A stretch of 62,967 bases of DNA from Desulfobacteraceae bacterium (lineage in GTDB: Bacteria > Desulfobacterota > Desulfobacteria > Desulfobacterales > SG8-13), in contig JARFQH010000087.1 in NCBI GenBank assembly GCA_029287875.1, forward strand, positions 1-62,967. The letters run 5' to 3'. Below are positions 15,094 through 40,096 of this stretch, piece by piece. The position numbers and the translations under genes are program-made. Below the pieces are notes generated by a model that ran no database searches, was not told where the DNA came from, and worked only from the letters and a program-made list of their open reading frames with translations. Position 1 is the first letter of the stretch. The number at the start of each line of letters is the position of its first letter.

Positions 15094-15117
15094 CAGGGCA
15101 ACTTCAAAAATCGAGGT

Positions 15118-16494: not shown

Positions 16495-16507
16495 AGAAGA
16501 AAAGCAG

Positions 16508-18145: not shown

Positions 18146-18426
18146 AAGACGCCATTTCAAGGAGCTGTCTTTGCGGATTGGTGGAAATTCTGGGAATAGA
18201 GGACCTGCAGGCCATGGAGGTGGATATTCATGTCGCCTGTCCGAAACCGGAGAATGTGGATCTGGAGCAGGTAAAAGCGACCGTTCCCATCGGACGAAAA
18301 ACTGCCCAAGCGGTTGAAGGGGGAATGAAGGTCAAGGGGCTTTGTGTGCCCAATTTTGCTCCGGACTGTGATCAAATCGTCGTGGCCAATGCTGCTGTGA
18401 CTGTTTTGATTCGGATGAACCTTTAG
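18058..18426 (+). CDS. Lin0512-family conserved protein of unknown function
   Basis: 122-aa ORF (METKRFIVEIGTGADLHGEDVTKAACRAVKDAI...) resembling the small Lin0512 family, recognised from memory. AAGGGA lies upstream. It overlaps the 3' tail of the lipB-lipA ORF by 88 nt. Confidence 0.6.
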   Translation: METKRFIVEIGTGADLHGEDVTKAACRAVKDAISRSCLCGLVEILGIEDLQAMEVDIHVACPKPENVDLEQVKATVPIGRKTAQAVEGGMKVKGLCVPNFAPDCDQIVVANAAVTVLIRMNL

Positions 18427-18721
18427 GATGTTTTCATCCTGTCATCAGATTCATGGCTGGTGGCCGGCACTAAGGGCTCACTCAAAAATAGCTTCACATT
18501 TTGGAAGCCGATGCATCCCGTCCGGCTGTGTTGCAAAAACTCGGAATATCCAGATATTCCTGCGTTTTCGCGCCTTGCCGGTCGGGCGCCTCAACACCCA
18601 AAATTGCGAACTTATTTTTTCGTGAACCCTAAATAAAGGAAAGGAGGGAAAGTTCAACGCAGTACATGTAATAGTATCCTGTGAAGCTATTTCGTCGACC
18701 TCAACCATAAGGAGGAAAGCA

Positions 18722-19681
18722 ATGGACCTGACCAATGAACAACTCATAGAGATGTATATCACTATGAACAAGATTCGAACCTTTGAAAATCGTGTCGCCG
18801 AGCTTTTTGCGGACGGAAAAATTCCGGGTTTTGTCCATCTGTATGTGGGTGAAGAAGCAGTTGCAACCGGGGCTTGTGCGAATCTGACCGACAAGGATTA
18901 CATCACCAGCACCCACCGCGGCCACGGGCATCTCATTGCCAAGGGCGGCGACATCAAGCGGATGATGGCCGAGCTGTTCGGTAAAAATACAGGCTACTGT
19001 AAGGGCAAGGGCGGTTCCATGCATATCGCCGATCTTGATCTTTGCATTATGGTCGCCAACGGTATTGTGGGCGGTGGTCCGCCGCTGGCCGCGGGAGCCG
19101 CACTGGCCTGCCAGTATTTGGACACCGACAGCGTGGCGGTGTGCTTTTTCGGCGACGGCGCCTCCAACCAGGGAACCACCCACGAGGCCATGAATCTGGC
19201 CACCTGCTGGAAGCTTCCGGTGGTGTTTGTCAATGAAAATAACATGTACGGCATCTCATCCTGTACCCTTAATTCCATGTGCGTTCCCAACATCGCCGAC
19301 CGGGCCGCCGCCTATGATATGCCTGGCGTCGTTGTGGATGGAAACGATGTCATTGCGGTTTATGAAGCGGTCGGTGAAGCAATCAAACGGGCCCGCCAGA
19401 GCAAGGGACCGTCTCTGGTTGAATGTAAAACTTATCGCCACCGGGGACATTTTGAAGGCGATCCCTGTGCTTATCGCAACGATGCTGAGCTTGAGGAGTG
19501 GAAAGAAAAAGACCCGATTCCGAGGCTCGAGCAAAAGCTGCTGGAAATGAAACTGCTTACCGACGGTAAAATCAGTGAGATCAAAAGCGCCCTTCAAAAA
19601 GAGTTGGCCGAAGCTGAAAAATTTGCCGAAGAAAGCCCGCTGCCTGATGTCTCCGAACTTACAGAGGATGTTTACTCTTAA
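18722..19681 (+). CDS. acoA: TPP-dependent acetoin/pyruvate dehydrogenase E1 alpha subunit
   Basis: 319 aa. AAGGAGG RBS. TPP-binding region (GSMHI..., FFGDGASNQGTTHEAMNLA, VFVNENNMYGIS). Confidence 0.9.
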   Translation: MDLTNEQLIEMYITMNKIRTFENRVAELFADGKIPGFVHLYVGEEAVATGACANLTDKDYITSTHRGHGHLIAKGGDIKRMMAELFGKNTGYCKGKGGSMHIADLDLCIMVANGIVGGGPPLAAGAALACQYLDTDSVAVCFFGDGASNQGTTHEAMNLATCWKLPVVFVNENNMYGISSCTLNSMCVPNIADRAAAYDMPGVVVDGNDVIAVYEAVGEAIKRARQSKGPSLVECKTYRHRGHFEGDPCAYRNDAELEEWKEKDPIPRLEQKLLEMKLLTDGKISEIKSALQKELAEAEKFAEESPLPDVSELTEDVYS

Positions 19682-19736
19682 GCGCTTAACGGCTTAACAT
19701 CGGGAAAATGGGAGACCCTAAAAGGAGGATTGAAAA

Positions 19737-20711
19737 ATGCCGAATATGACTTTTGCTCAAGCGTTAAACGACGCGCATAAGGTTGAAATGGAGCGTGATC
19801 CCAAAATATATGTCGCCGGTGAGGATGTAGGGGTTTACGGCGGAATTTTTGGTGTAACGGCGGGGCTGCTGGACCAGTTCGGCGACAAGCGGGTGAAGGA
19901 CACCCCCATTACCGAAAGTGCGATCGTCGGGACAGCGGTAGGAGCTGCTACCGTCGGTCTCAGACCGGTCATTGAACTGATGTTTGTCGATTTTATCGGG
20001 GTTGCCCTGGATCAGCTTTATAATCAGGCCGCCAAGATGAAATACATGTTCGGCGGCAAAGCCAGGATCCCCATGGTTATGCGCGCATCCTGCGGTGCCG
20101 GCATCGGGGCCGCGGCCCAGCACTCCCAGTGCCTGGAGGCACTGTTCATGCATCTTCCCGGGCTGAAGGTGGTTATGCCCAGCACACCGTATGACGCCAA
20201 AGGGCTTCTGATCGAAGCGATTCGCGACGACAACCCGGTGGTCTTCCTGGAGCATAAATTACTTTATGCCCTCGAGGGGGAGGTTCCCGACGGCACTTAC
20301 ACCATCCCCTTTGGCCAGGTCGATATCAAGCGCGAGGGCAAGGACGTCACCGTCGTGGCTACGGCCAAAATGGTCCATACCGCGTTGAGCGCTGCCGAAA
20401 AGCTTGCCGCAGACGGGATCAGCGTGGAGGTGGTGGACCCGCGTACGCTTTGCCCCCTGGATGAAGAGGGTATTATCGAATCCGTCAAAAAGACCCACCG
20501 GCTGGTCATCGTGCACGAAGAGGTGAAATTCGCCGGATCAGGCGCTGAAATTTCAGCTATGGTGGCCGAAAAGGCCTTTGATTATCTGGATGCACCAATC
20601 CTGCGGGTGGCCGCACCTTTTTGCCCGGTTCCTTTTTCAGCTCCACTCGAGCAAGCCTTCATACCGAGCGAAGAAAAGATTATTGAAGCGGTCAGAAAGG
20701 TAAGAGAGTGA
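19737..20711 (+). CDS. acoB: Acetoin/pyruvate dehydrogenase E1 beta subunit
   Basis: 324 aa. AAGGAGG RBS. Transketolase-like pyrimidine-binding and C-terminal domains (RVKDTPITESAIVGTAVGAA, DPRTLCPLD). Confidence 0.9.
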   Translation: MPNMTFAQALNDAHKVEMERDPKIYVAGEDVGVYGGIFGVTAGLLDQFGDKRVKDTPITESAIVGTAVGAATVGLRPVIELMFVDFIGVALDQLYNQAAKMKYMFGGKARIPMVMRASCGAGIGAAAQHSQCLEALFMHLPGLKVVMPSTPYDAKGLLIEAIRDDNPVVFLEHKLLYALEGEVPDGTYTIPFGQVDIKREGKDVTVVATAKMVHTALSAAEKLAADGISVEVVDPRTLCPLDEEGIIESVKKTHRLVIVHEEVKFAGSGAEISAMVAEKAFDYLDAPILRVAAPFCPVPFSAPLEQAFIPSEEKIIEAVRKVRE

Positions 20712-20813
20712 TTTGTCCGGTTGGGCGTTCCAACTGGATGGCGCCTTGGAAAGCGGAATTTTACCAGGCCCTAAAATCCAGGTATAAAGAGTTTGAACAA
20801 TAAGGAGAACATC

Positions 20814-20979
20814 ATGAAAGCTGCTGTATGGGTATGGCAGAAAAGATGTCAGGGTAGAAAATGTAACCGAACCCTCTGCACTGACAGACGACACTCTGAG
20901 GAAGTTGCCATATTGTATAAGCTGCCGTTTCTGGTGTGATGCCGTGCTTGATTTTAAACAACCAAAAAGAAAGGCTTGA
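20814..20979 (+). pseudogene. Remnant of a Zn-dependent (MDR) alcohol / 2,3-butanediol dehydrogenase gene, frameshifted and truncated
   Basis: AAGGAGA RBS plus ATG at 20814 gives MKAAVW. After a +1 shift the reading continues YGRKDVRVENVTEPSALTDDTL..YC.SC, the typical N-terminus of MDR dehydrogenases. It terminates after ~50 codons, immediately before acoX. Confidence 0.45.
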
Positions 20980-20981
20980 CG

Positions 20982-22028
20982 ATGTCACTGGTAGGCATTG
21001 TTGCCAATCCAGCCTCCGGGACGGATATTCGCAGGCTGGTTGCATACGGCAGCGTTTTTAACAACCAGGAGAAGGTTAGAATCGTACGGCGTATTCTGCT
21101 TGGCCTGGAGGCGGCAGGTGTGAAGCAGATAAGCTATATGCCAGACTACTACGGCATTGTGGAGCGAGCACTTGATGGCGTGAAAATCGGTTTGGATATT
21201 TCACCGTTGGTGTTTGACACCAAGGCGGATCAAAGGGACTCTGTGCGTGCAGCCGAGATATTGGCGCAAAAGGGCGTCGGCTGTATTGTTACCCTGGGCG
21301 GCGATGGAACCAATCGTGTGGTTGCCAAAGGCACTTGCCAAGTCCCGATTCTTCCTGTCTCAACCGGCACCAACAATGTATTTCCTTACATGATTGAAGG
21401 AACAATTGCAGGGCTGGCAGCCGGCCTGATCGCCACCGGAAAAGTCTCCCGAAAAGACGGTGCTTTTACTTCTACCCGGCTTGAAGTTTTCGTCGAAGGA
21501 CAGCTCGTCGATATCGCTATTGTCGATGCAGTGATTTGTGATGATATTTTCGTCGGCTCACGCGCGGTGTGGAAAATGGATAAAATCAGACAGGTGTTTT
21601 TAAATCGCGCCAGGCCGGCATGCATCGGTTTTTCCTCAATCGGCGGTATGATCCGTATCATCGCTCCTGAGGAGCCTTTCGGTATGCATCTGAAATTAGG
21701 AAAAAATGGACAGCCGATTACGGCGCCCATCGCCCCCGGGATAGTTGAAACCGTGTATGTTGAAAACATGAAGGTGATGGCGCCGGGTGAAGAAGTCGAT
21801 ATCATCTTCAAGCCTTCTGTGGTCGCTCTGGATGGCGAACGGGAAGTGGAAATCAAAAGGGATCAGAAGGCGACCATCCGTCTTTCGGCCTCCGGTCCTT
21901 TGGTTGTGGATGTTGAGCGGACCATGGCATTTGCAATGAAAAGAAAAGTTTTTGCCCCTGAGTTCAGCAGTAGTTCAGAAACATCCCAAAAGGAAAAATA
22001 TAGATTAAAAAACAACGAGCCCAACTGA
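20982..22028 (+). CDS. acoX: ATP-NAD kinase-like protein (AcoX-type acetoin catabolism protein)
   Basis: Track ORF 20976..22028, with the ATG at 20982 (MSLVGIVANPASG). It has the NAD-kinase/DAG-kinase GGDGT motif (IVTLGGDGTNRVV) and follows the E1 genes as acoX does in aco clusters. Confidence 0.7.
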   Translation: MSLVGIVANPASGTDIRRLVAYGSVFNNQEKVRIVRRILLGLEAAGVKQISYMPDYYGIVERALDGVKIGLDISPLVFDTKADQRDSVRAAEILAQKGVGCIVTLGGDGTNRVVAKGTCQVPILPVSTGTNNVFPYMIEGTIAGLAAGLIATGKVSRKDGAFTSTRLEVFVEGQLVDIAIVDAVICDDIFVGSRAVWKMDKIRQVFLNRARPACIGFSSIGGMIRIIAPEEPFGMHLKLGKNGQPITAPIAPGIVETVYVENMKVMAPGEEVDIIFKPSVVALDGEREVEIKRDQKATIRLSASGPLVVDVERTMAFAMKRKVFAPEFSSSSETSQKEKYRLKNNEPN

Positions 22029-22279
22029 AAGAATGTTAGAAAAGAATCTGCGTCAGATGTCGCTTCGCACAGGCGATTATAGCGAAAAGACATCTTTCTT
22101 TATATAGAAATCCTGCCGTTACACACCATATGAGAGCCGGCGCATATTGGCGAAGAGATTGGCGCCGAACCGCGGATGTTTCCCGAATAGCTTTCATGAG
22201 CTATCGTTCTCAACAAAACATGACCTCATATCAAGTATTAATGGTGAAATTTTTGACCAATCCCCCGCGAAATTTGTAT

Positions 22280-23545
22280 ATGAAAGTATTCATTGTTCAG
22301 ATCGTCATTCTTCTCATTCTAATCGGAAGCTCACCGATGGCTGCAGCACAAAACGATGCAGGTGAAGGCTACACCAATTCCCAATGCGCGGAGTGCCATG
22401 AAGAAATGGCGGATGATCATGCGGCGTCGGTCCACAAAGACGTTCAGTGCCTGGAATGTCACGTTCAGGCGGTTGAGGAAAACCATGAAGCGCTGGCGGC
22501 TGTCAATTGTCGTCAATGCCATGCGCCACACGATGAAAAGGTCATTCACGACGCCCACACACGGGTCGCTTGCAAAGCATGCCATCAGAAAGACGGCATC
22601 CCGGTCGCAGAACCTGAAACAGGGTTGGTGATCTTCAGCGGTAACATACTGTCGGGACGAAAATTGTCGCCACATCAAATGGTTGCAGAAAGGGGGGATT
22701 CTCTCTGCCAAAAATGTCATTTTAAGGGCAACGCCTTGGGCGCATCATCCATGATACTGCCCCCTAAAGGCATCCTGTGCATGCCTTGTCATGCCGCCAC
22801 GTTTTCCATCGGGGATCGAACAACCTTTTTGTCCTTGTTGATTTTTGGTGTGGGTATGAGCGGCATGTGCGTCGTCTGGTTCTCGGGAGGCCGCATTAGA
22901 CAAAGTGCGCATGCGCTTCAAGGCGGCTTATCACCGTTGATGGTTGCGATGGTCGCAGATGTGCTTTTCCTTAGACGGCTATTTCGTTTGTCCCCGTGCC
23001 GGTGGCTCATCCATGCGCTGATCTTTTATCCGATTCTCATACGATTCGCATTCGGGGCGTTGACGCTCAGTCTGTCACTGATTGTGCCGGACACGGATCT
23101 GGCCAGAGCCATGCTGGATAAAAACAATCCGTTGCAGGGAATGCTGTTCGACTTGACCGGCCTGATGATTTTCACCGGTGTGGCGGCGGTGCTCTTTCGC
23201 CCCAAAGAAGGCCTACAAACGATCGCCAATCTGCCTAAGCCCGGCCGTACCATGACGGTGCTGCTTGGGCTCATCGTCTTGGTCGGGTTTATCTTGGAAA
23301 GCCTGCGGATTGCCATGACCGGGTGGCCCAGCGGTGCTCAGTATGCCTTTATCGGGTACGGTTTGAGCTTACTGCTGAAAAGCGTGCCAGAAATAACGAC
23401 CATTTACGGCTATGTATGGTATGTTCATACGATTTTGACAGGTGTTTTTATAGCGCTGATCCCTTTTACCCGCATGCTTCATATAATCACTTCGCCGGTG
23501 GTGCTGATGGCCGATGTGCGATCACGAATTCAAGCCAATAACTGA
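22280..23545 (+). CDS. Fusion protein: periplasmic hexahaem cytochrome c plus NarI/DsrM/TmcC-like integral membrane (cytochrome b-type) domain
   Basis: Track ORF 22130..23545 trimmed to the ATG at 22280 (MKVFIVQIVILLILIGSSPMAAAQ is a signal peptide). It has six CXXCH motifs (CAECH, CLECH, CRQCH, CKACH, CQKCH, CMPCH). About 6-7 hydrophobic helices follow, ending in a NarI-family-like PFTRMLHIITSP. Confidence 0.8.
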   Translation: MKVFIVQIVILLILIGSSPMAAAQNDAGEGYTNSQCAECHEEMADDHAASVHKDVQCLECHVQAVEENHEALAAVNCRQCHAPHDEKVIHDAHTRVACKACHQKDGIPVAEPETGLVIFSGNILSGRKLSPHQMVAERGDSLCQKCHFKGNALGASSMILPPKGILCMPCHAATFSIGDRTTFLSLLIFGVGMSGMCVVWFSGGRIRQSAHALQGGLSPLMVAMVADVLFLRRLFRLSPCRWLIHALIFYPILIRFAFGALTLSLSLIVPDTDLARAMLDKNNPLQGMLFDLTGLMIFTGVAAVLFRPKEGLQTIANLPKPGRTMTVLLGLIVLVGFILESLRIAMTGWPSGAQYAFIGYGLSLLLKSVPEITTIYGYVWYVHTILTGVFIALIPFTRMLHIITSPVVLMADVRSRIQANN

Positions 23546-23562
23546 CACGGAGGAAAGATTAC

Positions 23563-23985
23563 ATGGAAATTCAAGGATACAACCTGCCCGAAGATCTGCA
23601 CTATGAAAAAAACCATTACTGGGTGAAAGTCGAGGGCGACATACTAGTGATGGGGATGGACGACTTTGCCCAGCAAATGGCCGGAGATATTGTTTTTGTT
23701 CAGATCCCCTTTTCCGGGAAAAAGCTGAAGGCCGGTAAAAAATTCGCCCAGGTGGAATCGGGCAAATGGTTGGGGAAGGTCTATGCGCCGGTCAATGGCG
23801 AACTGATTGAGGGAAATGAAGCGCTCGAGGCGGAGCCCTCACTCATTAACCGGGATTGCTATGGCAAGGGGTGGATGTTCAAGATAAAGCCTTCAGACAT
23901 GGCCGAACTGAACAACCTGATCCATGACCCTGCGGACATCGAAAAATGGCTTCTGGAAGATATTGAAAAATACAAGCAGGATTAA
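23563..23985 (+). CDS. GcvH-fold lipoyl-carrier protein (LbpA-like; not linked to gcvT/gcvP)
   Basis: 140 aa. H-protein pattern (HYWVKVEGD..., FAQVESGKWLGKVYAPVNGELIEGNEAL, GKGWMFKIK). The lysine in VESGK sits at the lipoyl-lysine position. Confidence 0.85.
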   Translation: MEIQGYNLPEDLHYEKNHYWVKVEGDILVMGMDDFAQQMAGDIVFVQIPFSGKKLKAGKKFAQVESGKWLGKVYAPVNGELIEGNEALEAEPSLINRDCYGKGWMFKIKPSDMAELNNLIHDPADIEKWLLEDIEKYKQD

Positions 23986-23986
23986 C

Positions 23987-25195
23987 ATGGTGAATCGGAA
24001 CTACAGCCTCGGCCAGCTTTTTCAGATAAAGTCGTGTACGAACTGTCAGACTTGCGCTCAAGTGTGCCCGGCGGTTGCAGGCAGCCTTGATGGAAAGCTG
24101 TCGGCCATTTACCGCATCACGACACTTGACCGTATCGTTAAGGCGCGAACGGCATTTTGGCGTAAACTTTTCCGTATCAAAGAACCTACGGCAGAAGAAT
24201 TGCGCGCTTTCAGCGATACGGTTTTCCGCTGCACTTTATGCGGGAACTGCCGTCAGGTTTGTCCGGTGGGGATAGACCTGACGCAACTCTGGCATTCCGC
24301 TCGCAGGGACCTTGTGGACTCTGATGCATATCCCGAAAAAATTGACATAATCCGGGAAAATTTGGATGAAAGCCACAACGTATTTGGAGAGGACAACGAA
24401 GACCGGGCCGAATGGGTGGAAGATATTCCCGATGCTCCGGAACACGGCTATATAAAGGACCGGGCAGACCTGATCTATTTTACCGGTTGCGTATCATCCT
24501 TTTTCCCGATGGCCCAGCAGATTCCCATGGCTCTGGTAAAAATCTTCGATGCGGCCCGGATCGATTTTACCCTGCTGGGCGAAGATGAGTGGTGCTGCGG
24601 CTTTCCCCTGCTCGGTGCCGGGCTCGGCGGCCGACTCGATGGTTTGATTTCAAACAACATCAATGCCGTAAGGGCCAAAGGGGCAACACAGGTGGTATTT
24701 GCCTGCCCTTCTTGTTATCGGATGTGGCAGGAGCATTACCCGTGTGAATTTGAGGTCACTCATGTCACCGAGTTTTTAAGCCGGCTGATCAAATCGGGCC
24801 GCCTTTTGCTTAAAGAACTCGATTTGACGGTGACCTACCATGATCCTTGCGATCTTGGGAGAGGCTCTGGAGAGTACGACGCCCCACGGGATATCATACA
24901 ATCCATTCCAGGAGTGCGATTCGTGGAAATGTCTAACAATCGTGAGCGCTGTAGTTGCTGCGGCGGGGGCGGCAACTTGGAGATGATCGACTCCAAACTG
25001 TCCGCAGATATTGCCGCCAATAAGATGAAAGAAGTAAAAGCAACCGGCGCACAGGTTGTGGTGACTGCTTGCCAGCAGTGCGTGCGCACCATGACCACTT
25101 ATGCCAAAAGGAACAAAATTCCCATCGAAGTCATGGATATCACCCAACTCATACACAAGGCGCTTGCCGGTAAAGATCGCCCGGATAGCGACTAA
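23987..25195 (+). CDS. HdrD/DsrK/TmcB/GlpC-like iron-sulfur protein with two CCG domains
   Basis: Track ORF 23924..25195 trimmed to the ATG at 23987, 1 nt after the gcvH-like stop. It has two ferredoxin motifs (CTNCQTCAQVCP, CTLCGNCRQVCP) and two cysteine-rich CCG modules (FTGCVSSFF...EWCCGFPL; ACPSCYRMW...HDPCDLGRG...CSCCGGGG). There is no signal peptide. Confidence 0.85.
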   Translation: MVNRNYSLGQLFQIKSCTNCQTCAQVCPAVAGSLDGKLSAIYRITTLDRIVKARTAFWRKLFRIKEPTAEELRAFSDTVFRCTLCGNCRQVCPVGIDLTQLWHSARRDLVDSDAYPEKIDIIRENLDESHNVFGEDNEDRAEWVEDIPDAPEHGYIKDRADLIYFTGCVSSFFPMAQQIPMALVKIFDAARIDFTLLGEDEWCCGFPLLGAGLGGRLDGLISNNINAVRAKGATQVVFACPSCYRMWQEHYPCEFEVTHVTEFLSRLIKSGRLLLKELDLTVTYHDPCDLGRGSGEYDAPRDIIQSIPGVRFVEMSNNRERCSCCGGGGNLEMIDSKLSADIAANKMKEVKATGAQVVVTACQQCVRTMTTYAKRNKIPIEVMDITQLIHKALAGKDRPDSD

Positions 25196-25244
25196 GTTGA
25201 TTTTGAATTAAAACGTCTGAGATCGCTTTTAAAAAGGAAGACCG

Positions 25245-25679
25245 ATGGGAGAGTATTACACGACCGTTCGATTGACAGATAAAGGCGCCGATGTCCGCCT
25301 GGGGCAGGTAAACTTTATAGTATCCCGCCGTGATGGCATCGGAACCGGCCATGGTTGTCCAATGGCGTATATGGCCGGCGCACTGGGCAGCTGAGTCGTG
25401 CTGACCCTGTCTGCGGTCGCAGATCACAAGAAGATCACCATGGAAAAACTTGAAGTGCAGGTGGGTTGCATAACCGAAAATGGCATTTCTCCATCAACAC
25501 GCTTTAAGATCAGAATCGATGTCGGCGACGGCTTGACTCAAAGAGAGCGGGCAATTCTTTTTAACTCTGCCCGCAACTGTGAAGTGGGCAAAATCATAGA
25601 CGGGAAAGTTGATATCGATTATTCTTTAAATTCCATCGCATACTTGCAACCATACTGCGAAGATATTAACGATGAATAA
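25245..25679 (+). CDS. OsmC/Ohr-fold peroxiredoxin-like protein with in-frame TGA (candidate selenocysteine) at codon 50
   Basis: AAGGAAG RBS plus ATG at 25245 opens 49 codons (…GHGCPMAYMAGALGS). A TGA follows at 25392-25394. The same frame continues as track ORF 25398..25679 (VVLTLSAVADHKKI...NSARNCEVGKI). The joined product is 144 aa, OsmC size. The TGA falls exactly where OsmC proteins carry the first conserved Cys (..aaLgsC..), and the second conserved Cys is present (ARNCEV). Confidence 0.65.
25410..25423 (+). promoter_or_regulatory. Short SECIS-like hairpin downstream of the in-frame TGA
   Basis: UCUGC-GGUC-GCAGA forms a 5-bp stem, plus a flanking G.U pair, with a GGUC apical loop. The loop starts 21 nt after the UGA. 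The loop sequence and spacing resemble bacterial SECIS apices such as E. coli fdhF, but the stem is short. Confidence 0.4.
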
Positions 25680-25709
25680 GATAGTCCAACTCAATTACTG
25701 AAGTATGCT

Positions 25710-27302
25710 ATGCAAACCTGGAGACTATTAGACACACCGCCCATGACAGCGGCAGAAAACATGGCCATGGACGAAACCCTGCTGGAACTTAAAGGCAAAG
25801 GGAAAAGCCTCAACACCATCCGTTTCCTGCAGTTTTCGCCAAGGGCTGTTTTGGTGGGCTTTCACCAGGCCATTGACGAGGAGATACGCACCGATTATTG
25901 CAGGGCGAACCGGATTGATGTGAACCGTCGCATTACTGGTGGCGGGGCCATCTTTTTCGATGAGAACCAGTTGGGCTGGGAAGTATTCTGTAACAAGTCC
26001 TTTTTTAATACTGCCATCCCCAACGTACATCTCTTCAAAGCCCTGTGTGATCCGGTGGTCACGGCCCTTGCGCTGTTGAACATCAACGCCGAGTTCAGGC
26101 CGCGCAACGACATTGAGGTCAACGGCCGCAAGATTTCGGGCACCGGCGGTACTGAGGCAGACGACGCCTTTATGTTTCAGGGCACCATGCTGGTTGATTT
26201 CGATGTAAACACCATGTTAAGGGCGCTGCGGATTCCGGTGGAAAAGCTCAAGGCCAAGGAGATCAACTCGGTCAAGGATCGTGTCACCTGCCTGAAATGG
26301 GAACTGGGTGATGCCCCGGCCCTTGCGAGCATCAAACAGGCCATCAAGCTCGGATTTGAAAAATGTCTGGATATAAAACTTGAACTGGGAGGATTAACCA
26401 CCCAGGAACAAAAGCGGTTCGAGGAGAAACTGACCCATTTTCGGTCTGCCCGGTGGGTCGACACCGTCAAACCGCGTTTTCAGAAGCGTGAGGCGGTGCA
26501 CGCGTCCTACAAGGCGCCAACGGGCATGGTGCGCTTTACCCTGGTGGTCAACCTGCCTCAAAAGCGTTTGAAAGATATCTATATCACCGGCGATTTTCTC
26601 TCCTTTCCAGGCCGGGCCCTTTACGACCTGGAAGCCGAACTGAGGGGCGCACCCCTTGACCGCGACCATCTGCATGGGATCATCCGCAACTATTTTAACC
26701 AGGGGCGCATCATCATTCCGGGATTGTCCCTCGAAGATTTTGTCAAACCCCTGGATCAGTGTCTTGAGAAGGTTGAAATTTCAAACTACGGCATCCCTTT
26801 GGCGCATTGCAACCTGATCTCCGTTGCCAACGGGTCGTTTGAAGAGGTGATTCGCCGGCGGCCGTCGGTTCTGTTGCTGCCGTATTGCGCCAAACTCACC
26901 GGATGTGATTTAAGATATGAAAAAGGGTGTAAGGTTTGCGGAGAAGCCGGCTGCTCCATCGGACCGGCCTGGGCCATGGGCCGGAGCAAGAAAATGGAAG
27001 TCATCAGCATTATCAGTTTCGAAGACCTTTGGGATGAATTGATGCGGATGAAAGCGACCGGGGTTTCGGCATACATCGGTTGCTGTTGTCAGCCTTTTTT
27101 TTCTAAGCACGTGGATGAGTTCAAAAGATCCGGGTTGCCGGGGATCCTGCTGGATATCGACAATACCACCTGCTATGAGCTGGATCAGGCAAAACAGGCG
27201 TATGCCGGACAGTTCGAAAGCCAGACCAACTTGGATCTGGAACTATTGGAAACGGTACTTCAAACAATTGTAAATGCGCGCGGCAGCAGTGTGACGGCAT
27301 GA
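25710..27302 (+). CDS. Lipoate-protein ligase (LplA catalytic plus accessory domain) fused to a C-terminal Cys-rich DUF116-like domain
   Basis: 530 aa. LplA motifs (NRRITGGGAIFFD, VNGRKISGTGG) and an LplA C-terminal/LplB-like region (YITGDFLSFPGRALYDLE). The last ~155 aa are cysteine-rich (LLLPYCAKLTGCDLRYEKGCKVCGEAGCSIG...IGCCCQPFF), matching my recollection of DUF116. Confidence 0.8.
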   Translation: MQTWRLLDTPPMTAAENMAMDETLLELKGKGKSLNTIRFLQFSPRAVLVGFHQAIDEEIRTDYCRANRIDVNRRITGGGAIFFDENQLGWEVFCNKSFFNTAIPNVHLFKALCDPVVTALALLNINAEFRPRNDIEVNGRKISGTGGTEADDAFMFQGTMLVDFDVNTMLRALRIPVEKLKAKEINSVKDRVTCLKWELGDAPALASIKQAIKLGFEKCLDIKLELGGLTTQEQKRFEEKLTHFRSARWVDTVKPRFQKREAVHASYKAPTGMVRFTLVVNLPQKRLKDIYITGDFLSFPGRALYDLEAELRGAPLDRDHLHGIIRNYFNQGRIIIPGLSLEDFVKPLDQCLEKVEISNYGIPLAHCNLISVANGSFEEVIRRRPSVLLLPYCAKLTGCDLRYEKGCKVCGEAGCSIGPAWAMGRSKKMEVISIISFEDLWDELMRMKATGVSAYIGCCCQPFFSKHVDEFKRSGLPGILLDIDNTTCYELDQAKQAYAGQFESQTNLDLELLETVLQTIVNARGSSVTA

Positions 27303-28363
27303 AGAGAATGGTATCGTGCGACATCCTGGTTGTGGGGGCCGGACCCGCCGGCGGAGCCACGGCATTGGCAGCCACCAGTAGGGGTATGCGGGTGTTGCTT
27401 GTTGATCGCAGGCAGGTTGTTGGGGTGCCTGTCCAATGTGCCGAATACATTCCGGCCATGCTGATGGGCCATCTGGATCTTGACAATTCTTTCATCGTTC
27501 AGCAGATCCGGGGAATGAGGACCTACCTTCCGGATGAACCGGTGACGAAAACACGCGCTCCTGGGTTTACTATCGACAGAGAACTTTTCGATCAGGCCTT
27601 GATCCAAGCGGCTTCAGATGTCGGTGCCAAACTGATGCTCTCCACACGGGCAGTTCAACGGATTGATGATGAAACCATACTGCTCAAACGAAAAAGCGGA
27701 CAGTATCTTACTGTTGGCGCAAAAATAATTGTGGGCGCCGACGGTCCCCGCTCAACGGTCGGTCGCTGGGTGGGGGCCGTCAACCACAACCTGCTGCCGG
27801 GCGTACAGGCCACGCTGCCGCTGACGGAACCAATGGATTGGACCGAAGTTTACTTTGACCCGGAAATTTCTGCTGGCTACGGATGGCTGTTTCCGAAGAA
27901 CCATATAGCCAACGTCGGAATCGGACTAAAGAATATGCCTCGGAGTCAAACCAAAATCGGAGTTGTACTGAATCGATTCATTGCCCGGCTCCGGGCCGCA
28001 GGCAAAGTGACGGGAAATCCGGTGAGGTATGCCGCCGGCTGGATACCCGCGGAACCGGTGCGGCAAGCGGTTCACGGTAACGTGGCGCTGGTTGGCGATG
28101 CCGCCGGCCATACCCATCCCATCACAGGCGCAGGGATATCTAACGCGGTCCTTTGCGGGAAAATGGCGGGTACATGGGCTGCCCGGGCCGTCGAAGAAGG
28201 CGATATGAGTGTGCTTAAACATTATGACCACCAGTGGCAGGATCTTTTCAAAAACACCCTTGACCGTGCCCACAAGCGCCGCCAAACGATGGAATCCGAT
28301 TGGCGAGATTTTTCGCGCACGGTCAAGATGTGTTGGATTGGATTTCGCGAATATTATGCCTAG
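27299..28363 (+). CDS. Geranylgeranyl-reductase-family FAD-dependent oxidoreductase
   Basis: 354 aa. The start overlaps the ligase stop (ATGA). Dinucleotide fold CDILVVGAGPAGGATALAA plus GGR-like VQCAEYIP and GDAAGHTHPITGAGI. Confidence 0.8.
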   Translation: MKRMVSCDILVVGAGPAGGATALAATSRGMRVLLVDRRQVVGVPVQCAEYIPAMLMGHLDLDNSFIVQQIRGMRTYLPDEPVTKTRAPGFTIDRELFDQALIQAASDVGAKLMLSTRAVQRIDDETILLKRKSGQYLTVGAKIIVGADGPRSTVGRWVGAVNHNLLPGVQATLPLTEPMDWTEVYFDPEISAGYGWLFPKNHIANVGIGLKNMPRSQTKIGVVLNRFIARLRAAGKVTGNPVRYAAGWIPAEPVRQAVHGNVALVGDAAGHTHPITGAGISNAVLCGKMAGTWAARAVEEGDMSVLKHYDHQWQDLFKNTLDRAHKRRQTMESDWRDFSRTVKMCWIGFREYYA

Positions 28364-29330
28364 CGTCTCAGCGCTTGCCGATCGATTGCAAGCAGCCCGA
28401 GAACTTTCCTGGCGGCACCTCGGTAAAACCATTGTTTTTTATCTGCCGGGCATGATCAGGCTTGACAGGACCAATGGAAAATATCCGGCACTCTCGATAA
28501 CTGGCGGCGATTGCATCCTTGGGTGCGATCATTGCCAAGGGACGATTCTGAACGGTATGATGCATGTTAAATCCCCTGGCCAACTGGTGTCCCGATGCCG
28601 CCGGTTGGCCGAAAAAGGGCATCACGGCGTGTTGATCAGCGGTGGTTGCAATGCCGGGGGGCAGTTACCGTGGGATCGCTTCATACCGGCGATTCAAGAG
28701 ATCAAAGCCGAAACGGACTTGTTCATCTCAATACACAGCGGTCTGGTCAATGATCCGGACGCCTTCAGGCTGAAACAGGCAGGCGTGGACCAGGCTTTGA
28801 TCGATGTCATCGGCGATGACGAAACGTTTAAAACCGTCTGTCATGTCCCCTTTGGGGTGAATCGTATTGAAGCGGCGATGGCTTCCTTGCATCGGGCCAG
28901 AATTCCAATTGTACCTCATATTGTGTGTGGTGTTCGTTACGGCAAGACACGAGGGGAAAAAAATGCGGTTGCCATGATTTCTCGATTCAAGTTGCAGCAG
29001 GTGGTAATCGTTTCTCTGATGCCCATTCCGGGTACACGGATGGAGAAAGCCCGGCCCCCTGCGCCGGAGACGGTAGCAGATATCATTGCCGAAGTGCGTT
29101 TTGCGATGCCGCATACGCCCATCAGTTTAGGTTGCGCCCGTCAGAGAGGCAACAGCCGCATGGAGGTGATGGCCATCGAAGCCGGGGTCAACCGCCTGGC
29201 CCTGCCCTCCGAAAAGGCCGTGGAAAAGGCCGTGGCTTACGGACTAAGTATTCGGTATCAAAAAACGTGCTGCAGCGTTTCCCGGGACCTTTCAACCCCC
29301 AGCTGGGACGCCCAATTTAGTAGTGAATAA
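28356..29330 (+). CDS. Radical SAM protein, LipS1/LipS2-type (two-component lipoyl synthase family)
   Basis: Track ORF 28209..29330 trimmed to the ATG at 28356, an 8-nt overlap with the upstream stop. It has a CX3CX2C motif (CILGCDHC). It is co-encoded with the LplA-type ligase, the GGR-like protein and a second radical SAM gene, as in LbpA maturation clusters. Confidence 0.7.
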   Translation: MPSVSALADRLQAARELSWRHLGKTIVFYLPGMIRLDRTNGKYPALSITGGDCILGCDHCQGTILNGMMHVKSPGQLVSRCRRLAEKGHHGVLISGGCNAGGQLPWDRFIPAIQEIKAETDLFISIHSGLVNDPDAFRLKQAGVDQALIDVIGDDETFKTVCHVPFGVNRIEAAMASLHRARIPIVPHIVCGVRYGKTRGEKNAVAMISRFKLQQVVIVSLMPIPGTRMEKARPPAPETVADIIAEVRFAMPHTPISLGCARQRGNSRMEVMAIEAGVNRLALPSEKAVEKAVAYGLSIRYQKTCCSVSRDLSTPSWDAQFSSE

Positions 29331-29402
29331 GGCTGCGCATCACGGGGAATCCAGCATCAATTCTGGACGCAGAAAACAGTTGCCATAAAAAAAGACGCCT
29401 TA

Positions 29403-30515
29403 ATGGATCAACACACCTCCAACATTCTCGAAAGTCCGGAATATCTGCGCATGAGTCTGGCTGCGGCCATGACCTTAGGTTTTAAGCCGGGCGTCTTTTA
29501 TAGAAACGCCAGACTATATTGCATCAACCTGTTGCTGACATACCGGGGCGGCTGTGCGGCACGTTGTGCATACTGCGGCCTGTCCAATAGCCGCTCCGGA
29601 AAATATCAGGAAAAGAGCTTTATCCGTGTGACCTGGCCCACCTACCCGACGGCCGAGGTCATCGAAGGGATAGCCGAGCGGCAGCACCGTGTGAAACGGG
29701 TCTGCATCTCCCAGATTACCAACAGGCGCGCGGTCGGAGACACCTTAACGATTTGCCGGCAACTGCGATCCAGTTTCGACATTCCCGTATCCCTGCTAAT
29801 TTCCCCAACCATCGTCAACCAGCGCGATTTGATGGACTTTAAAACCGCTGGAGCCGATAAAATCGGCGTGGCAATCGATCTGGCCACCCCGACCCTGTTC
29901 GACCGATATCGCGGCAGCGGAGTCGACGGACCGCATTGCTGGGACATTTACATGAATCGCTTGGCCGAAGCCATCAAGATCTTCGGGACGCGTAATGCCG
30001 GCTCCCATTTCCTTACGGGAATGGGGGAAACCGAAAAGCAGATGGTGGACATCATCCAAAAGATTCAGGACATGGGGGGCTGGACCCACCTTTTCTCTTT
30101 TTGTCCCGAACCCGGCTCACAGATGGTCGATCATCCCATGCCGGCCATGGATCACTACCGCAGGATTCAGCTTGCTCGATATCTTATCGATAAAAACCTC
30201 AGTCATGCCAAGTTTTTTGTCTATGATAAGAAACAAAAGATTATCGATTTTGGTTTACCGGCGGGCAAACTCGATGCGGTGATCTCGTCCGGCGAACCCT
30301 TTAGAACCAGTGGGTGCGAAGGCTATGACGGTCAGGTCGCCTGCAATCGCCCATTTGCCAATTCAAGACCCGGTCCCGAGATGCGTAACTATCCTTTTCC
30401 ACCGACACAAGCCGATATTGAATTGATTCGCAAACAGTTGCATTTGAAGCCTGTTCGCCCTGAAATGAGTCACCCTCTAAACAGACAGGGCGGAAACTCA
30501 GAAGTTATAAATTGA
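29403..30515 (+). CDS. Radical SAM protein, biotin-synthase-like, LipS1/LipS2-type
   Basis: 370 aa with a CX3CX2C motif (CAARCAYC). It is the second radical SAM gene of the cluster. Confidence 0.7.
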   Translation: MDQHTSNILESPEYLRMSLAAAMTLGFKPGVFYRNARLYCINLLLTYRGGCAARCAYCGLSNSRSGKYQEKSFIRVTWPTYPTAEVIEGIAERQHRVKRVCISQITNRRAVGDTLTICRQLRSSFDIPVSLLISPTIVNQRDLMDFKTAGADKIGVAIDLATPTLFDRYRGSGVDGPHCWDIYMNRLAEAIKIFGTRNAGSHFLTGMGETEKQMVDIIQKIQDMGGWTHLFSFCPEPGSQMVDHPMPAMDHYRRIQLARYLIDKNLSHAKFFVYDKKQKIIDFGLPAGKLDAVISSGEPFRTSGCEGYDGQVACNRPFANSRPGPEMRNYPFPPTQADIELIRKQLHLKPVRPEMSHPLNRQGGNSEVIN

Positions 30516-39160: not shown

Positions 39161-39937
39161 TTACAGGTCGGCTTTATCGGTTTTGGACGCTACGTAGAGC
39201 TCAATATCCGCTGCTCCCAACACCTCCGAAAGAGCTTGGGGGGGCGGCCGGTCTGTAAACAGGGCATCGATCTCATCGATACTGCCCAGTCGGACCATGG
39301 CATTGCGCCCGAATTTGGTATGATCGGTTGCCAGAAAAATCCGCCGAGAATTGTCGATGATGGCTCGCGAGACACGGACTTCACGGTAATCGAAATCGAG
39401 AAGCGTGCCGTCCATATCGATGCCGCTGATGCCGATGATGCCGAAATCGACGCGAAACTGCTGGATAAAGTCGATCGTGAGCGGGCCGATGATGCCGCCG
39501 TCGCGATGTCTTACCAAGCCGCCGGCCACAATGACTTCGAAATTTTCGTTGCCGCTTAAAATGGAGGCGACATTGAGGTTGTTCGTGATCACTTTGAGAC
39601 GCTGATGGTTGCACAGCGCCTTGGCAATTTCCTCCGTCGTGGTGCCGATATTGATAAAAAGAGACGCATTGTTCGGGATTTTATCCGCAACCATTGCGGC
39701 GATTTGCTGCTTTTCTCTGAGGCACAACACTTTTCGTTGTGTGTAGGCAACGTTCTCGGTGCTGGAGGCAACCCCGGCGCCACCATGATACCGGTTGATC
39801 GACCCCTCTTCACACAGGGTGTTGATGTCACGCCGAATCGTCTGGGGGGTCACCTTGAATGCTTGTGACAGAGACTCGATCGTTACAAATCCCCTGCTTT
39901 GAACCAGCTCGCGGATTTTTTCATGCCGCGTGCGCAT
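39161..39937 (-). CDS. glpR: DeoR-family transcriptional repressor (glycerol-3-phosphate regulon type)
   Basis: Track ORF 39161..40048 trimmed to the ATG at 39937 ([41 protein letters not shown] is a DeoR HTH). It has a C-terminal sugar-phosphate sensor domain and sits between the glp transporter and glpAB. Confidence 0.85.
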
Positions 39938-40096
39938 CGGCGCCGTTTTTTTACGCGACGCGCCGTCATTCCGGCAAAAATTTTGTTTGTCGCTGCGTCC
40001 TGCCGGACCGGATCGCCCATTGCCAGCCCTCATATGTCCTCCATCCAACCGGATTCGGGTATAATACTTTCTTTTATGAAAATTAATAGAAAGAAA

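Follow-up and report, generated by a model that had tools for sequence, protein, structure and literature searches.

A candidate OsmC-fold selenoprotein gene linked to lipoyl-carrier genes in a Desulfobacteraceae bacterium

The stretch of Desulfobacteraceae DNA analyzed here (62,967 nucleotides, hereafter the window) carries on its forward strand a candidate gene for an OsmC-fold selenoprotein, at positions 25245-25679. The in-frame TGA of this gene (25392-25394) is very probably a genuine selenocysteine (Sec) codon. The region as a whole is likely to represent one selenoprotein gene, which would be decoded with the help of a SECIS-like hairpin and would have a lipoyl-linked redox role. As we infer from the fold, the residue positions and the neighboring genes, its most likely function is that of a lipoyl-H-protein-dependent selenoperoxidase or oxidoreductase.

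Gene Layout and the In-Frame TGA

The candidate gene is a single frame of 144 codons on the forward strand, broken solely by the TGA. Direct reading of the sequence places a Shine-Dalgarno-like AGGAAG (25235-25240, forward strand) 4 nt upstream of the ATG at 25245. The N-terminal 49 codons (25245-25391), which end in ...GCPMAYMAGALGS, contain the invariant pair C38-P39 (codons 25356-25361). The UGA corresponds to residue U50, where the Ohr/OsmC fold has its first catalytic Cys, and the residues around it read GALGS-U-VVLTLSAVADHK. The C-terminal 94 codons and the TAA stop (25677-25679) occupy 25395-25679 and include the invariant K62, R100, E101 and N107-S108-A109 as well as the partner Cys, C112 (codon 25578-25580). 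The ribosome binding site, the ATG, the 49 codons, the TGA and the 94 further codons described in the earlier note are all present in the sequence, and the second conserved Cys that it reported within NSARNCEV is retained as C112. A third Cys, C38 (codon 25356-25358), was absent from that note and is invariant within the family. The ORF finder splits the locus into 25245-25394 (49 aa) and 25398-25679 (93 aa, with a GTG start). Other split ORFs around a TGA were screened across the window and yielded no further convincing selenoprotein, being ordinary gene ends or non-coding frames.

Our analysis revealed TGA at the same column in 41 distinct homologues from at least four phyla, and never TAA or TAG. 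The internal codon was TGA in all 46 Sec-form genes, to which loci L060 and L061 add two more. The true stops of these Sec-form genes were 23 TGA, 14 TAA and 8 TAG; under that stop usage the chance of an all-TGA column is approximately 1e-14, for sequences that are not fully independent. Conservation is in frame on both sides of the UGA, with C38 and P39 upstream and L53, T54, A57, V58, K62 and further residues up to C112 downstream. The 49-residue N-terminal half is conserved at the protein level in all loci, and in 47 of 47 sequences Sec is preceded by C at -12 and P at -11. When the joined protein was aligned with its homologues, column 50 was Sec or Cys, in line with the earlier proposal that a redox residue belongs there. 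Cys occurs at this column in loci L003, L031 and L056-L059 and in full-length Cys relatives. Furthermore, four full-length relatives (P0001, P0051, P0036 and P0056) show W; in the first three, the DNA of which was checked, the W stems from a TGA translated under a different genetic code.

A rival interpretation is that the TGA is an ordinary stop, due to a pseudogene or a sequencing error, or separating two small proteins of 49 and 93 aa. This would match the annotation by gene callers, the window does have a GTG two codons past the TGA, and the Sec machinery was not seen in the DNA searched. However, the recurrence of TGA in 41 distinct sequences of several phyla, with no other disruption and never as TAA or TAG, speaks against it. 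In addition, no ATG, GTG or TTG lies within six codons downstream of the TGA in 11 of 46 genes, so that a restart codon is unavailable there, the Cys homologues are single polypeptides, and termination would split the helix that holds the active-site residue. Taken with the conserved N-terminal half, the missing restart codons also bear out the earlier claim that neither half is a gene alone. The ordinary-stop interpretation is effectively refuted. The recoding signature itself is a plain feature of the alignment, and actual insertion of selenium at this codon would be its expected consequence.

A SECIS-Like Hairpin Downstream of the TGA

A SECIS-like hairpin was located at 25409-25424 on the forward strand. 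It has a 6-bp stem (G25409-C25414 with G25419-U25424) and a GGUC loop (25415-25418), and its core comprises 4 bp, formed by 25411-25414 with 25419-25422. Counted from the U of the UGA, the G of the loop is at +25 and its U at +26. A hairpin with a GGUC loop had been placed at 25410-25423 in the earlier note; the hairpin and its loop stand, while those limits describe a 5-bp version of the 6-bp stem. In characterized bacterial SECIS elements, the G-U of the apical loop is the dinucleotide recognized by SelB.

The folding energy of the single window sequence was not better than that of shuffled sequences (z = 0.28 and -0.92), so that the significance of the hairpin derives from the comparative data and not from its stability. 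Among the homologues it keeps a single register, and neither the G nor the U of the loop varies. The loop conforms to purine-G-U-pyrimidine (RGUY) in 38 of 39 sequences, and the core 4 bp are paired in 38/39. The pair 27:36 involves two four-fold degenerate third positions and is maintained in 39/39 sequences, as UA in 31, GC in five, AU in two and CG in one. The covariation score of the hairpin was 0.251 versus 0.094 for shuffles (none of 500 reached 0.251), and all slid controls were lower. The entropy of four-fold sites is also lower in the hairpin codons (0.56-1.07 bits) than upstream of them (1.5-1.9 bits).

The four distant Cys forms have 2, 4, 3 and 2 of the 4 core pairs left, and three of them fold at -0.7 to -1.2 kcal/mol, the fourth (L057) reaching -5.8 kcal/mol in a different register. 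The hairpin region of the Sec forms folds at -7.3 to -12.2 kcal/mol. The loop consensus is lost in Cys forms (Fisher p = 7e-4). With a fixed register, compensatory changes and decay in distant Cys forms, the hairpin behaves as the SECIS-like element that it had been taken for. Against the SECIS interpretation, the close Cys forms L003 and L031 retain it. It should also be considered that the amino acid sequence S/A-A-V-A-D/A forces part of the hairpin, that the stem is short (4-6 bp) and without the bulged U seen in the fdhF element of E. coli, and that Rfam returned no SECIS or other relevant family, either at gathering thresholds over the whole window or at permissive settings on 25300-25550.

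We propose that the mini-hairpin at 25409-25424 would direct decoding of the UGA as Sec, its apical loop offering G-U to SelB. The element would represent a compact, well-supported minimal bacterial SECIS, with a 4-6-bp stem, an RGUY tetraloop and no bulged U, located within a conserved helix-coding segment.

The hairpin also bears on a further possibility, namely that the UGA is read through as an amino acid other than Sec, i.e., Trp or Gly under an alternative code, or Cys by a near-cognate or mis-charged tRNA. Such read-through would account for database entries P0001, P0036 and P0051, in which W stands at the codon, but this W is a gene-caller code artefact on short contigs. Moreover, TGA ends neighboring genes of the window, for example at 15091 and 27300, and only Cys, never a genomically encoded Trp or Gly, replaces Sec at the column (the W of P0056 being seen in a protein entry only). 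Since a SECIS-like element is, in addition, specifically conserved, we consider non-Sec read-through very improbable.

Selenocysteine Machinery

No selA, selB, selC or selD was found within the 63-kb window or the flanks searched. ARAGORN detected no tRNA-Sec in the window and 27 loci, Pfam revealed no Sec machinery among 40 window ORFs, and tblastn with an approximate E. coli SelD query gave no SelD match in the DNA of the window and the collected loci. Sec competence of the source genome would be expected from its taxon. Desulfobacteria and Chloroflexota rank among the most selenoprotein-rich bacteria, with 39 selenoproteins in Desulfosarcina widdelii and 57 in one Desulfobacterales metagenome-assembled genome (PMC13326102), and the selenoprotein richness of Desulfobacteria has also been described elsewhere (PMC8318568).

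Fold and Active-Site Residues

The joined 144-aa product, with C at residue 50, matched Pfam OsmC (PF02566) with 45.4 bits against a cutoff of 27.5 over residues 38-126. A single-sequence phmmer search of the PDB returned no match. The profile-PDB alignment places Sec at the first Cys of 2pn2, 9wo1 and 2bjo and C112 at their second, and the earlier statement that the TGA aligns with the first conserved (peroxidatic) Cys is confirmed for OhrB and OsmC-like structures. The structure was modeled with AF2 on the Cys-form orthologue P0004, using an alignment of 27 full-length Cys relatives (pLDDT 83.2); an earlier run with a shallow alignment (pLDDT 63) was discarded. With this model, the top 50 Foldseek matches in the PDB were OsmC/Ohr structures without exception (TM up to 0.78) and included Ohr with bound dihydrolipoamide (6ebg, 6ebd). 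The U50-C112 spacing is 62 residues (62-64 across the family), and these two are the only invariant columns in the wider alignment. A redox Cys pair approximately 60 residues apart is the hallmark of the Ohr/OsmC superfamily (PMC5384416).

The similarity to Ohr/OsmC peroxidases (Xylella, Chromobacterium and Pseudomonas Ohr; E. coli OsmC) concerns both the fold (TM 0.6-0.7) and the redox residue pair, ~60 residues apart on two long helices. Ohr has also been crystallized with dihydrolipoamide (6ebg, 6ebd). The window protein differs in having Sec for the peroxidatic Cys, in the absence of the canonical Glu and in only partial conservation of the Arg. The position of the catalytic Glu (-10) never holds Glu, since 47 of 47 sequences have V, I, M, T or L there; the position that follows it is E in 28, A in 15 (the window included), D in three and S in one. 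A candidate for the catalytic Arg is offered by an RRD motif before helix 1, found in ~68% of the members, the window among them (R28, R29). The assignment of U50 to the peroxidatic Cys position made in the earlier note holds in the alignment, whereas, with the canonical Glu absent, a peroxidatic role of this residue can only be suggested.

Placement in the OsmC-Like Selenoprotein Family

OsmC-like selenoproteins have been known since 2005, and their prediction from metagenomic data, mentioned in the earlier note, is borne out by the literature (Zhang et al., 2005; PMC1088965). Against the NCBIfam model NF041052, the window protein scored 22.5 bits for a cutoff of 95, with residues 37-74 alone being aligned, and none of the 27 members examined came near the cutoff (best E-value 2e-5). 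A score so far under the cutoff indicates a separate, uncatalogued subfamily. The cutoffs of TIGR03561 (Ohr) and TIGR03562 (OsmC) were likewise unmet by the 27 members, with best E-values of 9e-4 and 5e-7, respectively. No member reaches the cutoff for Ohr, for OsmC or for SACOL1771 peroxiredoxins, and peroxidase chemistry is accordingly not assured. On sequence grounds, the window protein is outside NF041052 and outside the Ohr and OsmC subfamilies proper, in a separate subfamily of a known selenoprotein kind that no curated model names.

The protein shares with the OsmC-like selenoprotein family (Zhang, Fomenko & Gladyshev, 2005; COG1765/PF02566; NF041052) the OsmC fold, a single Sec in place of the first redox Cys, the existence of Cys homologues and a SECIS element (here, the proposed one) immediately downstream, and both are known from computational prediction alone. 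They differ in the motif, which is U-[VIM]-x-L-T, with T at +4, in the window family and UxxT in the OsmC-like selenoprotein family, as well as in the invariant C-P at -12/-11, a trait of the window family. The sources differ too, being anaerobes (Desulfobacterales, Thermodesulfobacteriota and Chloroflexota) for the window family and surface-ocean bacteria of the Sargasso Sea for the family of Zhang et al. (2005).

A search of 1.84 billion representative proteins yielded ~120 clusters at 50% identity, mostly Sec forms. Most database entries are fragments of 80-93 aa that start just past the TGA, and a few carry a spurious Trp. The family is routinely mis-annotated as two fragments, and a model made for this family, in which residue 50 is U, would fix the gene calls and enlarge selenoprotein catalogues by one subfamily.

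Genomic Neighborhood

The gene lies in a block of forward-strand genes. At 22130-23545, Pfam and synteny indicate a gene in which a multihaem cytochrome c is fused to a NarI-like membrane cytochrome b. It is followed by a GcvH-type lipoyl carrier (23563-23985), our proposed redox partner, which matches Pfam GCV_H with 136 bits and passes the NCBIfam GcvH equivalog cutoffs. Domain matches and synteny identify an HdrD/TfrB/DsrK-like iron-sulfur protein with two CCG domains at 23924-25195, the true start of which is probably downstream of the GcvH stop. Directly downstream of the OsmC gene is a lipoate-protein ligase with LplA/B catalytic and LplB-like domains and a C-terminal DUF116 (25710-27302). 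Next come a geranylgeranyl-reductase (GGR)-family flavoprotein (27299-28363) and two radical SAM lipoyl synthases, one LipS1-like (28209-29330; 218 bits for a cutoff of 230) and one LipS2-like (29403-30515; 217 bits for a cutoff of 270). LipS1 and LipS2 are their best matches by far, both under cutoff. The lipoate assembly pathway with LipS1/LipS2 has been described previously (PMC10332631).

Among 52 distinct loci, many on short contigs, linkage was found to LplA in 33, to the CCG protein in 28, to the NarI-like cytochrome in 22 and to GcvH in 19, the ligase being the commonest linked neighbor of the OsmC(U) gene. The linkage spans Desulfobacterales, Thermodesulfobacteriota, Chloroflexota, Anaerolineae and Propionibacteriaceae, with differing gene orders. 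The NarI-like gene adjoins the CCG gene in L016, and one Cys form is found in a PyrK-like-GcvH-LplA-OsmC locus. Linkage to the lipoyl H-protein, the ligase and the HdrD-like/NarI-like pair holds across at least four phyla, which suggests that anaerobes have a selenoenzyme system dependent on lipoyl groups. This neighborhood is unmentioned in the OsmC-like selenoprotein literature surveyed. The earlier note regarded a lipoyl-carrier operon as an unusual setting; in hindsight it is not odd, since lipoylated proteins are known as the physiological reductants of Ohr/OsmC (PMC5384416). The difference is that a dedicated lipoyl carrier is encoded alongside the window gene, while Ohr/OsmC rely on E2 subunits of 2-oxoacid dehydrogenases.

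Two known systems resemble parts of this locus. The Staphylococcus aureus GcvH-L/LplA2 operon, which has been tied to oxidant resistance (PMC12440151), likewise combines a dedicated H-protein paralogue outside glycine cleavage with its own lipoate ligase. However, it is without an OsmC-fold protein, a selenoprotein or an HdrD-like component, and it is under ADP-ribosylation control (SirTM/Macro). In the sHdr-LbpA system of sulfur oxidizers with sLpl(AB)-LipS1/LipS2 (Tanabe et al., 2023; PMC10332631), as in the window, a GcvH-like lipoate-binding protein is encoded together with its specific ligase, two radical SAM lipoyl synthases, a flavoprotein of the GGR family and a CCG protein related to Hdr. 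This Hdr component differs between the two, the window having one HdrD-like protein accompanied by a NarI-like cytochrome and sHdr-LbpA an sHdrABC-type complex. In addition, no OsmC-fold selenoprotein is described for the sHdr-LbpA system (PMC10332631), and the window-type cluster in Desulfobacterales, unlike sHdr-LbpA, adjoins acetoin/2-oxoacid dehydrogenase genes.

Proposed Function

In the proposed mechanism, Sec50 would act at the peroxidatic-Cys position and Cys112 at the resolving-Cys position of Ohr/OsmC. The Sec50 selenolate would be oxidized to selenenic acid, most plausibly by an organic or lipid hydroperoxide, and the selenenic acid would react with Cys112 to form a selenenylsulfide. 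The latter would be reduced back by the dihydrolipoyl arm of the co-encoded GcvH-type carrier, which may be lipoylated by the adjacent ligase together with the LipS1/LipS2-like genes, and may be joined in its redox cycle to the membrane via the HdrD-like CCG protein and the NarI-like cytochrome. Lipoyl-GcvH is the probable redox partner, whereas for peroxide reduction as the reaction we see about an even chance. The oxidant, and the direction in which electrons would pass through the HdrD-like module, are those that we infer for such a system.

A biochemical precedent is TvOsmC of Trichomonas vaginalis, which reportedly has as its partners the H and L proteins of a glycine cleavage system that is incomplete (Nyvltova et al., 2016, as cited in PMC10332631 and PMC5384416). 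TvOsmC is an Ohr-like OsmC-fold protein without the canonical Arg and Glu, as is the window protein with respect to Glu and, in part, Arg; its reported peroxidase activity needs a lipoylated H-protein, the partner type adjoining the window gene, and was not reproduced with small dithiols (PMC5384416). Unlike the window protein, TvOsmC is eukaryotic and hydrogenosomal and has Cys instead of Sec. Its H-protein is recycled by an NADH-dependent L-protein, where the window system has an HdrD-like/NarI-like membrane module.

It is also conceivable, though distinctly less likely, that the protein is a real selenoprotein but not a peroxidase. It would then act as a selenol/thiol-disulfide relay between dihydrolipoyl-GcvH and the HdrD-like CCG protein or another disulfide, i.e., as an adaptor within a membrane-linked lipoyl redox chain. 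The missing Glu, the variable Arg and the scores under all peroxiredoxin-type NCBIfam cutoffs would fit such a role, and Ohr-like proteins without Arg and Glu have been called poorly characterized (PMC5384416). The tight association with the genes for the CCG protein and NarI-like cytochrome, with the OsmC gene directly downstream of the cytochrome gene in L013, L036 and L041, favors a relay as well, and the family-specific invariant C38 suggests extra thiol chemistry. On the other hand, in minimal loci (GcvH, LplA and OsmC with a soluble flavoprotein) OsmC looks like a terminal consumer. HdrD-type CCG domains reduce disulfides directly, and to our knowledge they have no need of an adaptor. 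The peroxidase activity reported for TvOsmC also argues for the selenoperoxidase over the relay.

A role in lipoate assembly, in which the protein would be a persulfide or selenosulfide sulfur donor for the LipS1/LipS2-like enzymes or a redox keeper of the dithiolane, is improbable. In Desulfobacterales the gene does immediately precede the ligase-GGR-LipS1-LipS2 block, and no neighbor is more frequent than the ligase. Nevertheless, no LipS1 match was found in the Chloroflexota/Actinomycetota loci searched (L014-L016, L054), and the only LipS2 match in the loci searched (L017) was ~6.9 kb away on the opposite strand. We know of no OsmC-fold sulfur carrier. Furthermore, the sLpl(AB)-LipS1/S2 pathway was established without OsmC, which appears only in the reference list of that article (PMC10332631).

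Returning to the lipoyl-H-protein-dependent selenoenzyme, lipoyl-GcvH becomes a concrete candidate substrate for one group of orphan HdrD-like CCG proteins. More tentatively, the conserved set of five parts, i.e., the NarI-like cytochrome, the HdrD-like CCG protein, the dedicated lipoyl H-protein, the ligase belonging to it and the OsmC-fold protein with Sec, might form an undescribed antioxidant or redox module of anaerobes, in which an HdrD-type membrane enzyme would cycle the lipoyl group and the selenoprotein would be the terminal catalyst. If so, lipoyl-GcvH and quinone would be a new physiological substrate pair for H-protein paralogues and HdrD-like proteins. In such a module, a membrane enzyme of the heterodisulfide reductase type would take the place of dihydrolipoamide dehydrogenase.

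Probable Selenocysteine at an In-Frame TGA

The sequence features that the earlier note described at 25245-25679 (forward strand) were confirmed. A ribosome-binding site (AGGAAG, 25235-25240) precedes the ATG at 25245, 49 codons lead up to ...GCPMAYMAGALGS and a TGA at 25392-25394, and the frame then stays open for 94 more codons up to a TAA at 25677-25679; the ORF finder output consists of two ORFs of 49 and 93 aa. The joined 144-aa protein, with Cys at residue 50, matches Pfam OsmC (PF02566) at 45.4 bits (cutoff 27.5), and a downstream hairpin of 6 bp is predicted (G25409-C25414 with G25419-U25424, GGUC loop at 25415-25418).

A protein-database search with the joined sequence returned three kinds of relatives: full-length proteins (P0004, P0005, and P0007) reading ALGS-C-IVLTLSAVADHK, about 12 proteins starting exactly at V/MLTLSAVADHK, i.e., gene calls cut off just past the TGA, and P0001, with W at the Sec column and TGA in the underlying DNA. 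A profile search of 1.84 billion representative proteins yielded 122 clusters, most of them fragments of 80-93 aa whose first residue lies right after the TGA. Every full-length cluster in this search has Cys, or W, at the column that the earlier note had proposed to inspect. W was found in four full-length proteins (P0001, P0051, P0036, and P0056); the DNA was inspected for the first three and reads TGA in each. These three (loci L005, L060, and L061, respectively) are gene calls from short contigs of ENA metagenomes with the Sec TGA rendered as Trp, apparently because the gene caller picked genetic code 4 or 25. Protein collections thus contain spurious full-length "W" versions.

The DNA sample comprised 12 loci from GTDB species representatives, 38 metagenome loci and several targeted look-ups. 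TGA occupied the same column in 41 distinct Sec-form sequences from Desulfobacterales (Desulfosarcina, Desulfococcus, "Desulfobacterium," and Desulfocicer), other Thermodesulfobacteriota, Chloroflexota, Anaerolineae and one Propionibacteriaceae MAG. All 46 Sec-form genes carry TGA as the internal codon, their own true stops being TGA (23), TAA (14), or TAG (8); given this stop usage, and ignoring the relatedness of the sequences, the probability of an all-TGA outcome is ~1e-14. These homologue, codon and stop-usage results rule out a pseudogene and a sequencing error at the TGA. The N-terminal half is conserved at the protein level in all Sec forms (...RRD...C-P-[VIM]-[EA]-...-A-L-G-S-U), and 11 of the 46 genes have no ATG, GTG or TTG within 6 codons after the TGA, so that a separately started C-terminal protein is not viable and a split gene is ruled out. 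An alternative genetic code is likewise ruled out, since neighbouring genes in the window end in TGA as a normal stop (e.g., 15091 and 27300). The UGA at 25392-25394 almost certainly encodes Sec, and the selenoprotein interpretation is supported.

None of selA, selB, selD, or tRNA-Sec was found within the window or the flanking DNA examined. Support for Sec machinery in the source genome is at the taxon level only: Desulfobacteria and Chloroflexota are among the richest selenoprotein users in BSepDB, with 39 selenoproteins in Desulfosarcina widdelii and 57 in one Desulfobacterales MAG (PMC13326102), and one marine Desulfobacterales genome has the complete machinery (PMC8318568).

A SECIS-Like Hairpin

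Judged by folding energy alone, the hairpin (25409-25424) does not stand out from shuffled sequence. When 39 distinct Sec-form segments are aligned without gaps, the register of the hairpin is fixed, the 4-bp core is paired in 38 segments, and the loop has an invariant G and U, conforming to R-G-U-Y in 38/39. Pair 27:36 (U25412:A25421) connects two four-fold degenerate sites, the third base of a Ser/Ala codon and that of an Ala codon. Base pairing between these sites holds in all 39 segments (UA 31, GC 5, AU 2, and CG 1) and is the key evidence for the hairpin as a putative SECIS. The change of the outer pair from U-A to G-C is coupled with the residue changes Ser to Ala and Asp to Ala. The covariation score was 0.251 vs. 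0.094 in shuffles (0/500 as high) and exceeded every slid control. Four-fold sites had an entropy of 1.5-1.9 bits in the codons preceding the TGA and of 0.56-1.07 bits in those of the hairpin.

The encoded S/A-A-V-A-D/A itself partly favours a hairpin; for this reason the comparison was extended to Cys-form genes, for which SelB should be dispensable. In four distant Cys forms, 2, 4, 3, and 2 of the four core pairs remain, with loops AGUA, CGUU, UGUA, and UGUC. Three of them reach folding energies of just -0.7 to -1.2 kcal/mol, compared with -7.3 to -12.2 kcal/mol for Sec forms; the fourth (L057) reaches -5.8 kcal/mol, but in a different register. Sec and distant Cys forms differ at pair 27:36 (Fisher p ~7e-4), and likewise at the loop purine. 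Close Cys forms (L003/L004 and L031) retain the hairpin with a GGUG loop, which would fit a recent Sec-to-Cys change. The GGUC loop is shared with the E. coli fdhF element, in which SelB contacts the G-U; this lies at +23/+24 in fdhF and at +25/+26 here, counted from the U of UGA. No Rfam model matched the hairpin in searches covering the whole window. Its resemblance to bacterial SECIS elements, suspected in the earlier note, is borne out by the fixed register, the covariation at degenerate sites and the loss in distant Cys forms.

Fold, Redox Residues and Relation to Known OsmC-Like Selenoproteins

A 27-sequence profile matched OsmC-fold structures in the PDB, namely 2pn2 (8e-9), 9wo1 (OsmC), and 2bjo (OhrB). 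As claimed from the sequence, the Sec column falls on the first conserved Cys of all three and Cys112 on the second. These are the sole invariant columns of the wider alignment, 62-64 residues apart, and a Cys pair at such spacing typifies the Ohr/OsmC family (Meireles et al., 2017; PMC5384416). Modelled with AlphaFold (pLDDT 83), the Cys-form orthologue P0004 retrieved only OsmC/Ohr structures from the PDB (TM ≤0.78), including dihydrolipoamide-bound Ohr. Cys38 (25356-25358; C-P at -12/-11 from Sec, before the helix-1 Pro) is invariant in 47/47 members, and OsmC-like relatives further away have G, S, N, T, or A in its place; Cys38 may serve as a third redox residue, bind a metal or make a contact between subunits.

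Lists of prokaryotic selenoprotein families have included OsmC-like proteins ever since the Sargasso Sea analysis (COG1765, motif UxxT, three sequences; PMC1088965), the kind of metagenomic prediction to which the earlier note alluded, and reviews of 2022 and 2026 still give them as one PF02566 entry. A curated NCBIfam model, NF041052 "OsmC-related (seleno)protein," also exists. The window protein scores 22.5 bits on it (cutoff 95; 38 residues aligned), and the best of 27 family members reaches E = 2e-5. Given this sub-cutoff score, a different motif (U-x-x-L-T) and anaerobic hosts, unlike those of the listed proteins, sequence comparison places the predicted protein in a distinct subfamily within the known kind. 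Sec in an OsmC fold would not surprise a specialist; the value lies in a large mis-annotated family, a clean minimal candidate SECIS and a testable link joining selenium, protein-bound lipoate and an HdrD-type enzyme.

Gene Neighbourhood

The gene sits in a long same-strand cluster (13762-30515). Upstream lie genes for E2 (13762-15093), E3 (15118-16494), an LplA-radical SAM fusion (16445-18145), E1 alpha (18722-19681), E1 beta (19737-20711), an NAD-kinase-like (AcoX-like) protein (20976-22028), a multihaem cytochrome c/NarI-like fusion (22130-23545), GcvH (23563-23985), and an HdrD/TfrB/DsrK-like CCG protein (23924-25195). The selenoprotein gene (25245-25679) is followed by a lipoate ligase with C-terminal DUF116 (25710-27302), a GGR-family flavoprotein (27299-28363), and LipS1-like (28209-29330) and LipS2-like (29403-30515) radical SAM proteins.

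Linkage to lipoate/CCG genes persists despite rearrangement. The order is Cyt/NarI-GcvH-CCG-OsmC(U)-ligase-GGR-LipS1-LipS2 in Desulfobacterales. In Thermodesulfobacteriota OsmC(U) comes right after the Cyt/NarI gene, GcvH-CCG-ligase lying ~3 kb downstream, and in Anaerolineae and Propionibacteriaceae the order is NarI-CCG-GcvH-ligase-OsmC(U), then a TrxR-like flavoprotein. One Cys form occurs in a locus with the order PyrK-like-GcvH-ligase-OsmC. Across the 52 distinct loci, many of which are short, neighbours include the ligase (33), CCG (28), Cyt/NarI (22), and GcvH (19); the context is missing only from two very distant Cys forms, L057 and L058. No mention of this neighbourhood (dedicated lipoyl H-protein, ligase and HdrD-like/NarI-like pair) was found in the literature covered.

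Proposed Function

The physiological reductant of Ohr/OsmC is the protein-bound lipoyl group (PMC5384416), and a Trichomonas OsmC-fold protein without Arg/Glu reportedly reduces peroxides with the H and L proteins (cited in PMC10332631 and PMC5384416). On these grounds, the most economical reading is that Sec50 would attack a hydroperoxide, Cys112 would resolve the selenenic acid, and dihydrolipoyl-GcvH would regenerate the enzyme. Lipoyl-GcvH is probably the redox partner. Peroxide reduction itself we consider an even call on mixed evidence: the canonical Glu never occurs at the aligned position in the family, the window protein has Ala in place of the neighbouring Glu, a candidate Arg is present in only ~68% of members, and the family does not reach the cutoffs of the Ohr, OsmC, and SACOL1771 models. 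These features lend weight to a serious alternative, a non-peroxidase selenol/disulfide relay towards the HdrD-like protein, the Trichomonas precedent standing on the side of the peroxidase.

Additional Observations on the Loci

The Cyt/NarI gene (22130-23545) is one ORF with a c3/c7-type CXXCH multihaem region and a NarI-like (nitrate reductase gamma) membrane domain, for which NCBIfam has no model. Its position directly upstream of GcvH and CCG resembles HdrED or DsrMK, and a lipoyl protein is a possible substrate of such an arrangement. The longest CCG ORF overlaps the GcvH 3' end by 62 nt (23924-23985); translation probably starts at a codon further inside this ORF, close to where GcvH stops.

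Two separate lipoylation systems occur in the cluster, an LplA-catalytic-domain/radical-SAM fusion adjoining E2 and E3 (16445-18145), and the DUF116 ligase, GGR flavoprotein, LipS1-like and LipS2-like proteins by the GcvH-type carrier (25710-30515), which suggests that E2 and the H-protein paralogue are supplied with cofactor separately. The genes at 13762-22028 have the look of an acetoin-type 2-oxoacid dehydrogenase. In L001 (986-4132) and L002, E1 beta and AcoX are separated by SDR and Zn-ADH genes, and the cluster is followed by a sigma-54 activator gene; an acetoin/butanediol catabolic operon fits. In L013 (5576-13132; also L036 and L041, Thermodesulfobacteriota), OsmC(U) lies between a Cyt/NarI-like gene and a GlcD-type FAD oxidase, with a second CCG protein and a LarA-N-domain protein upstream, and the module looks embedded in a lactate or hydroxy-acid oxidation cluster, not an acetoin cluster. 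In L019/L021 (P0009) and P0018, the OsmC(U) ORF continues into ...LETIRHPGHDGG..., resembling the N-terminus of the downstream ligase (…YANLETIRY…), which suggests a lost stop codon or two overlapping genes. Finally, an unrelated glycerol/glycerol-3-phosphate cluster (39161-46092), downstream of an ABC sugar-type transporter, contains a DeoR regulator, a DAO-family FAD dehydrogenase, an FAD_binding_2 protein, an FGGY kinase and an iron-containing alcohol dehydrogenase.
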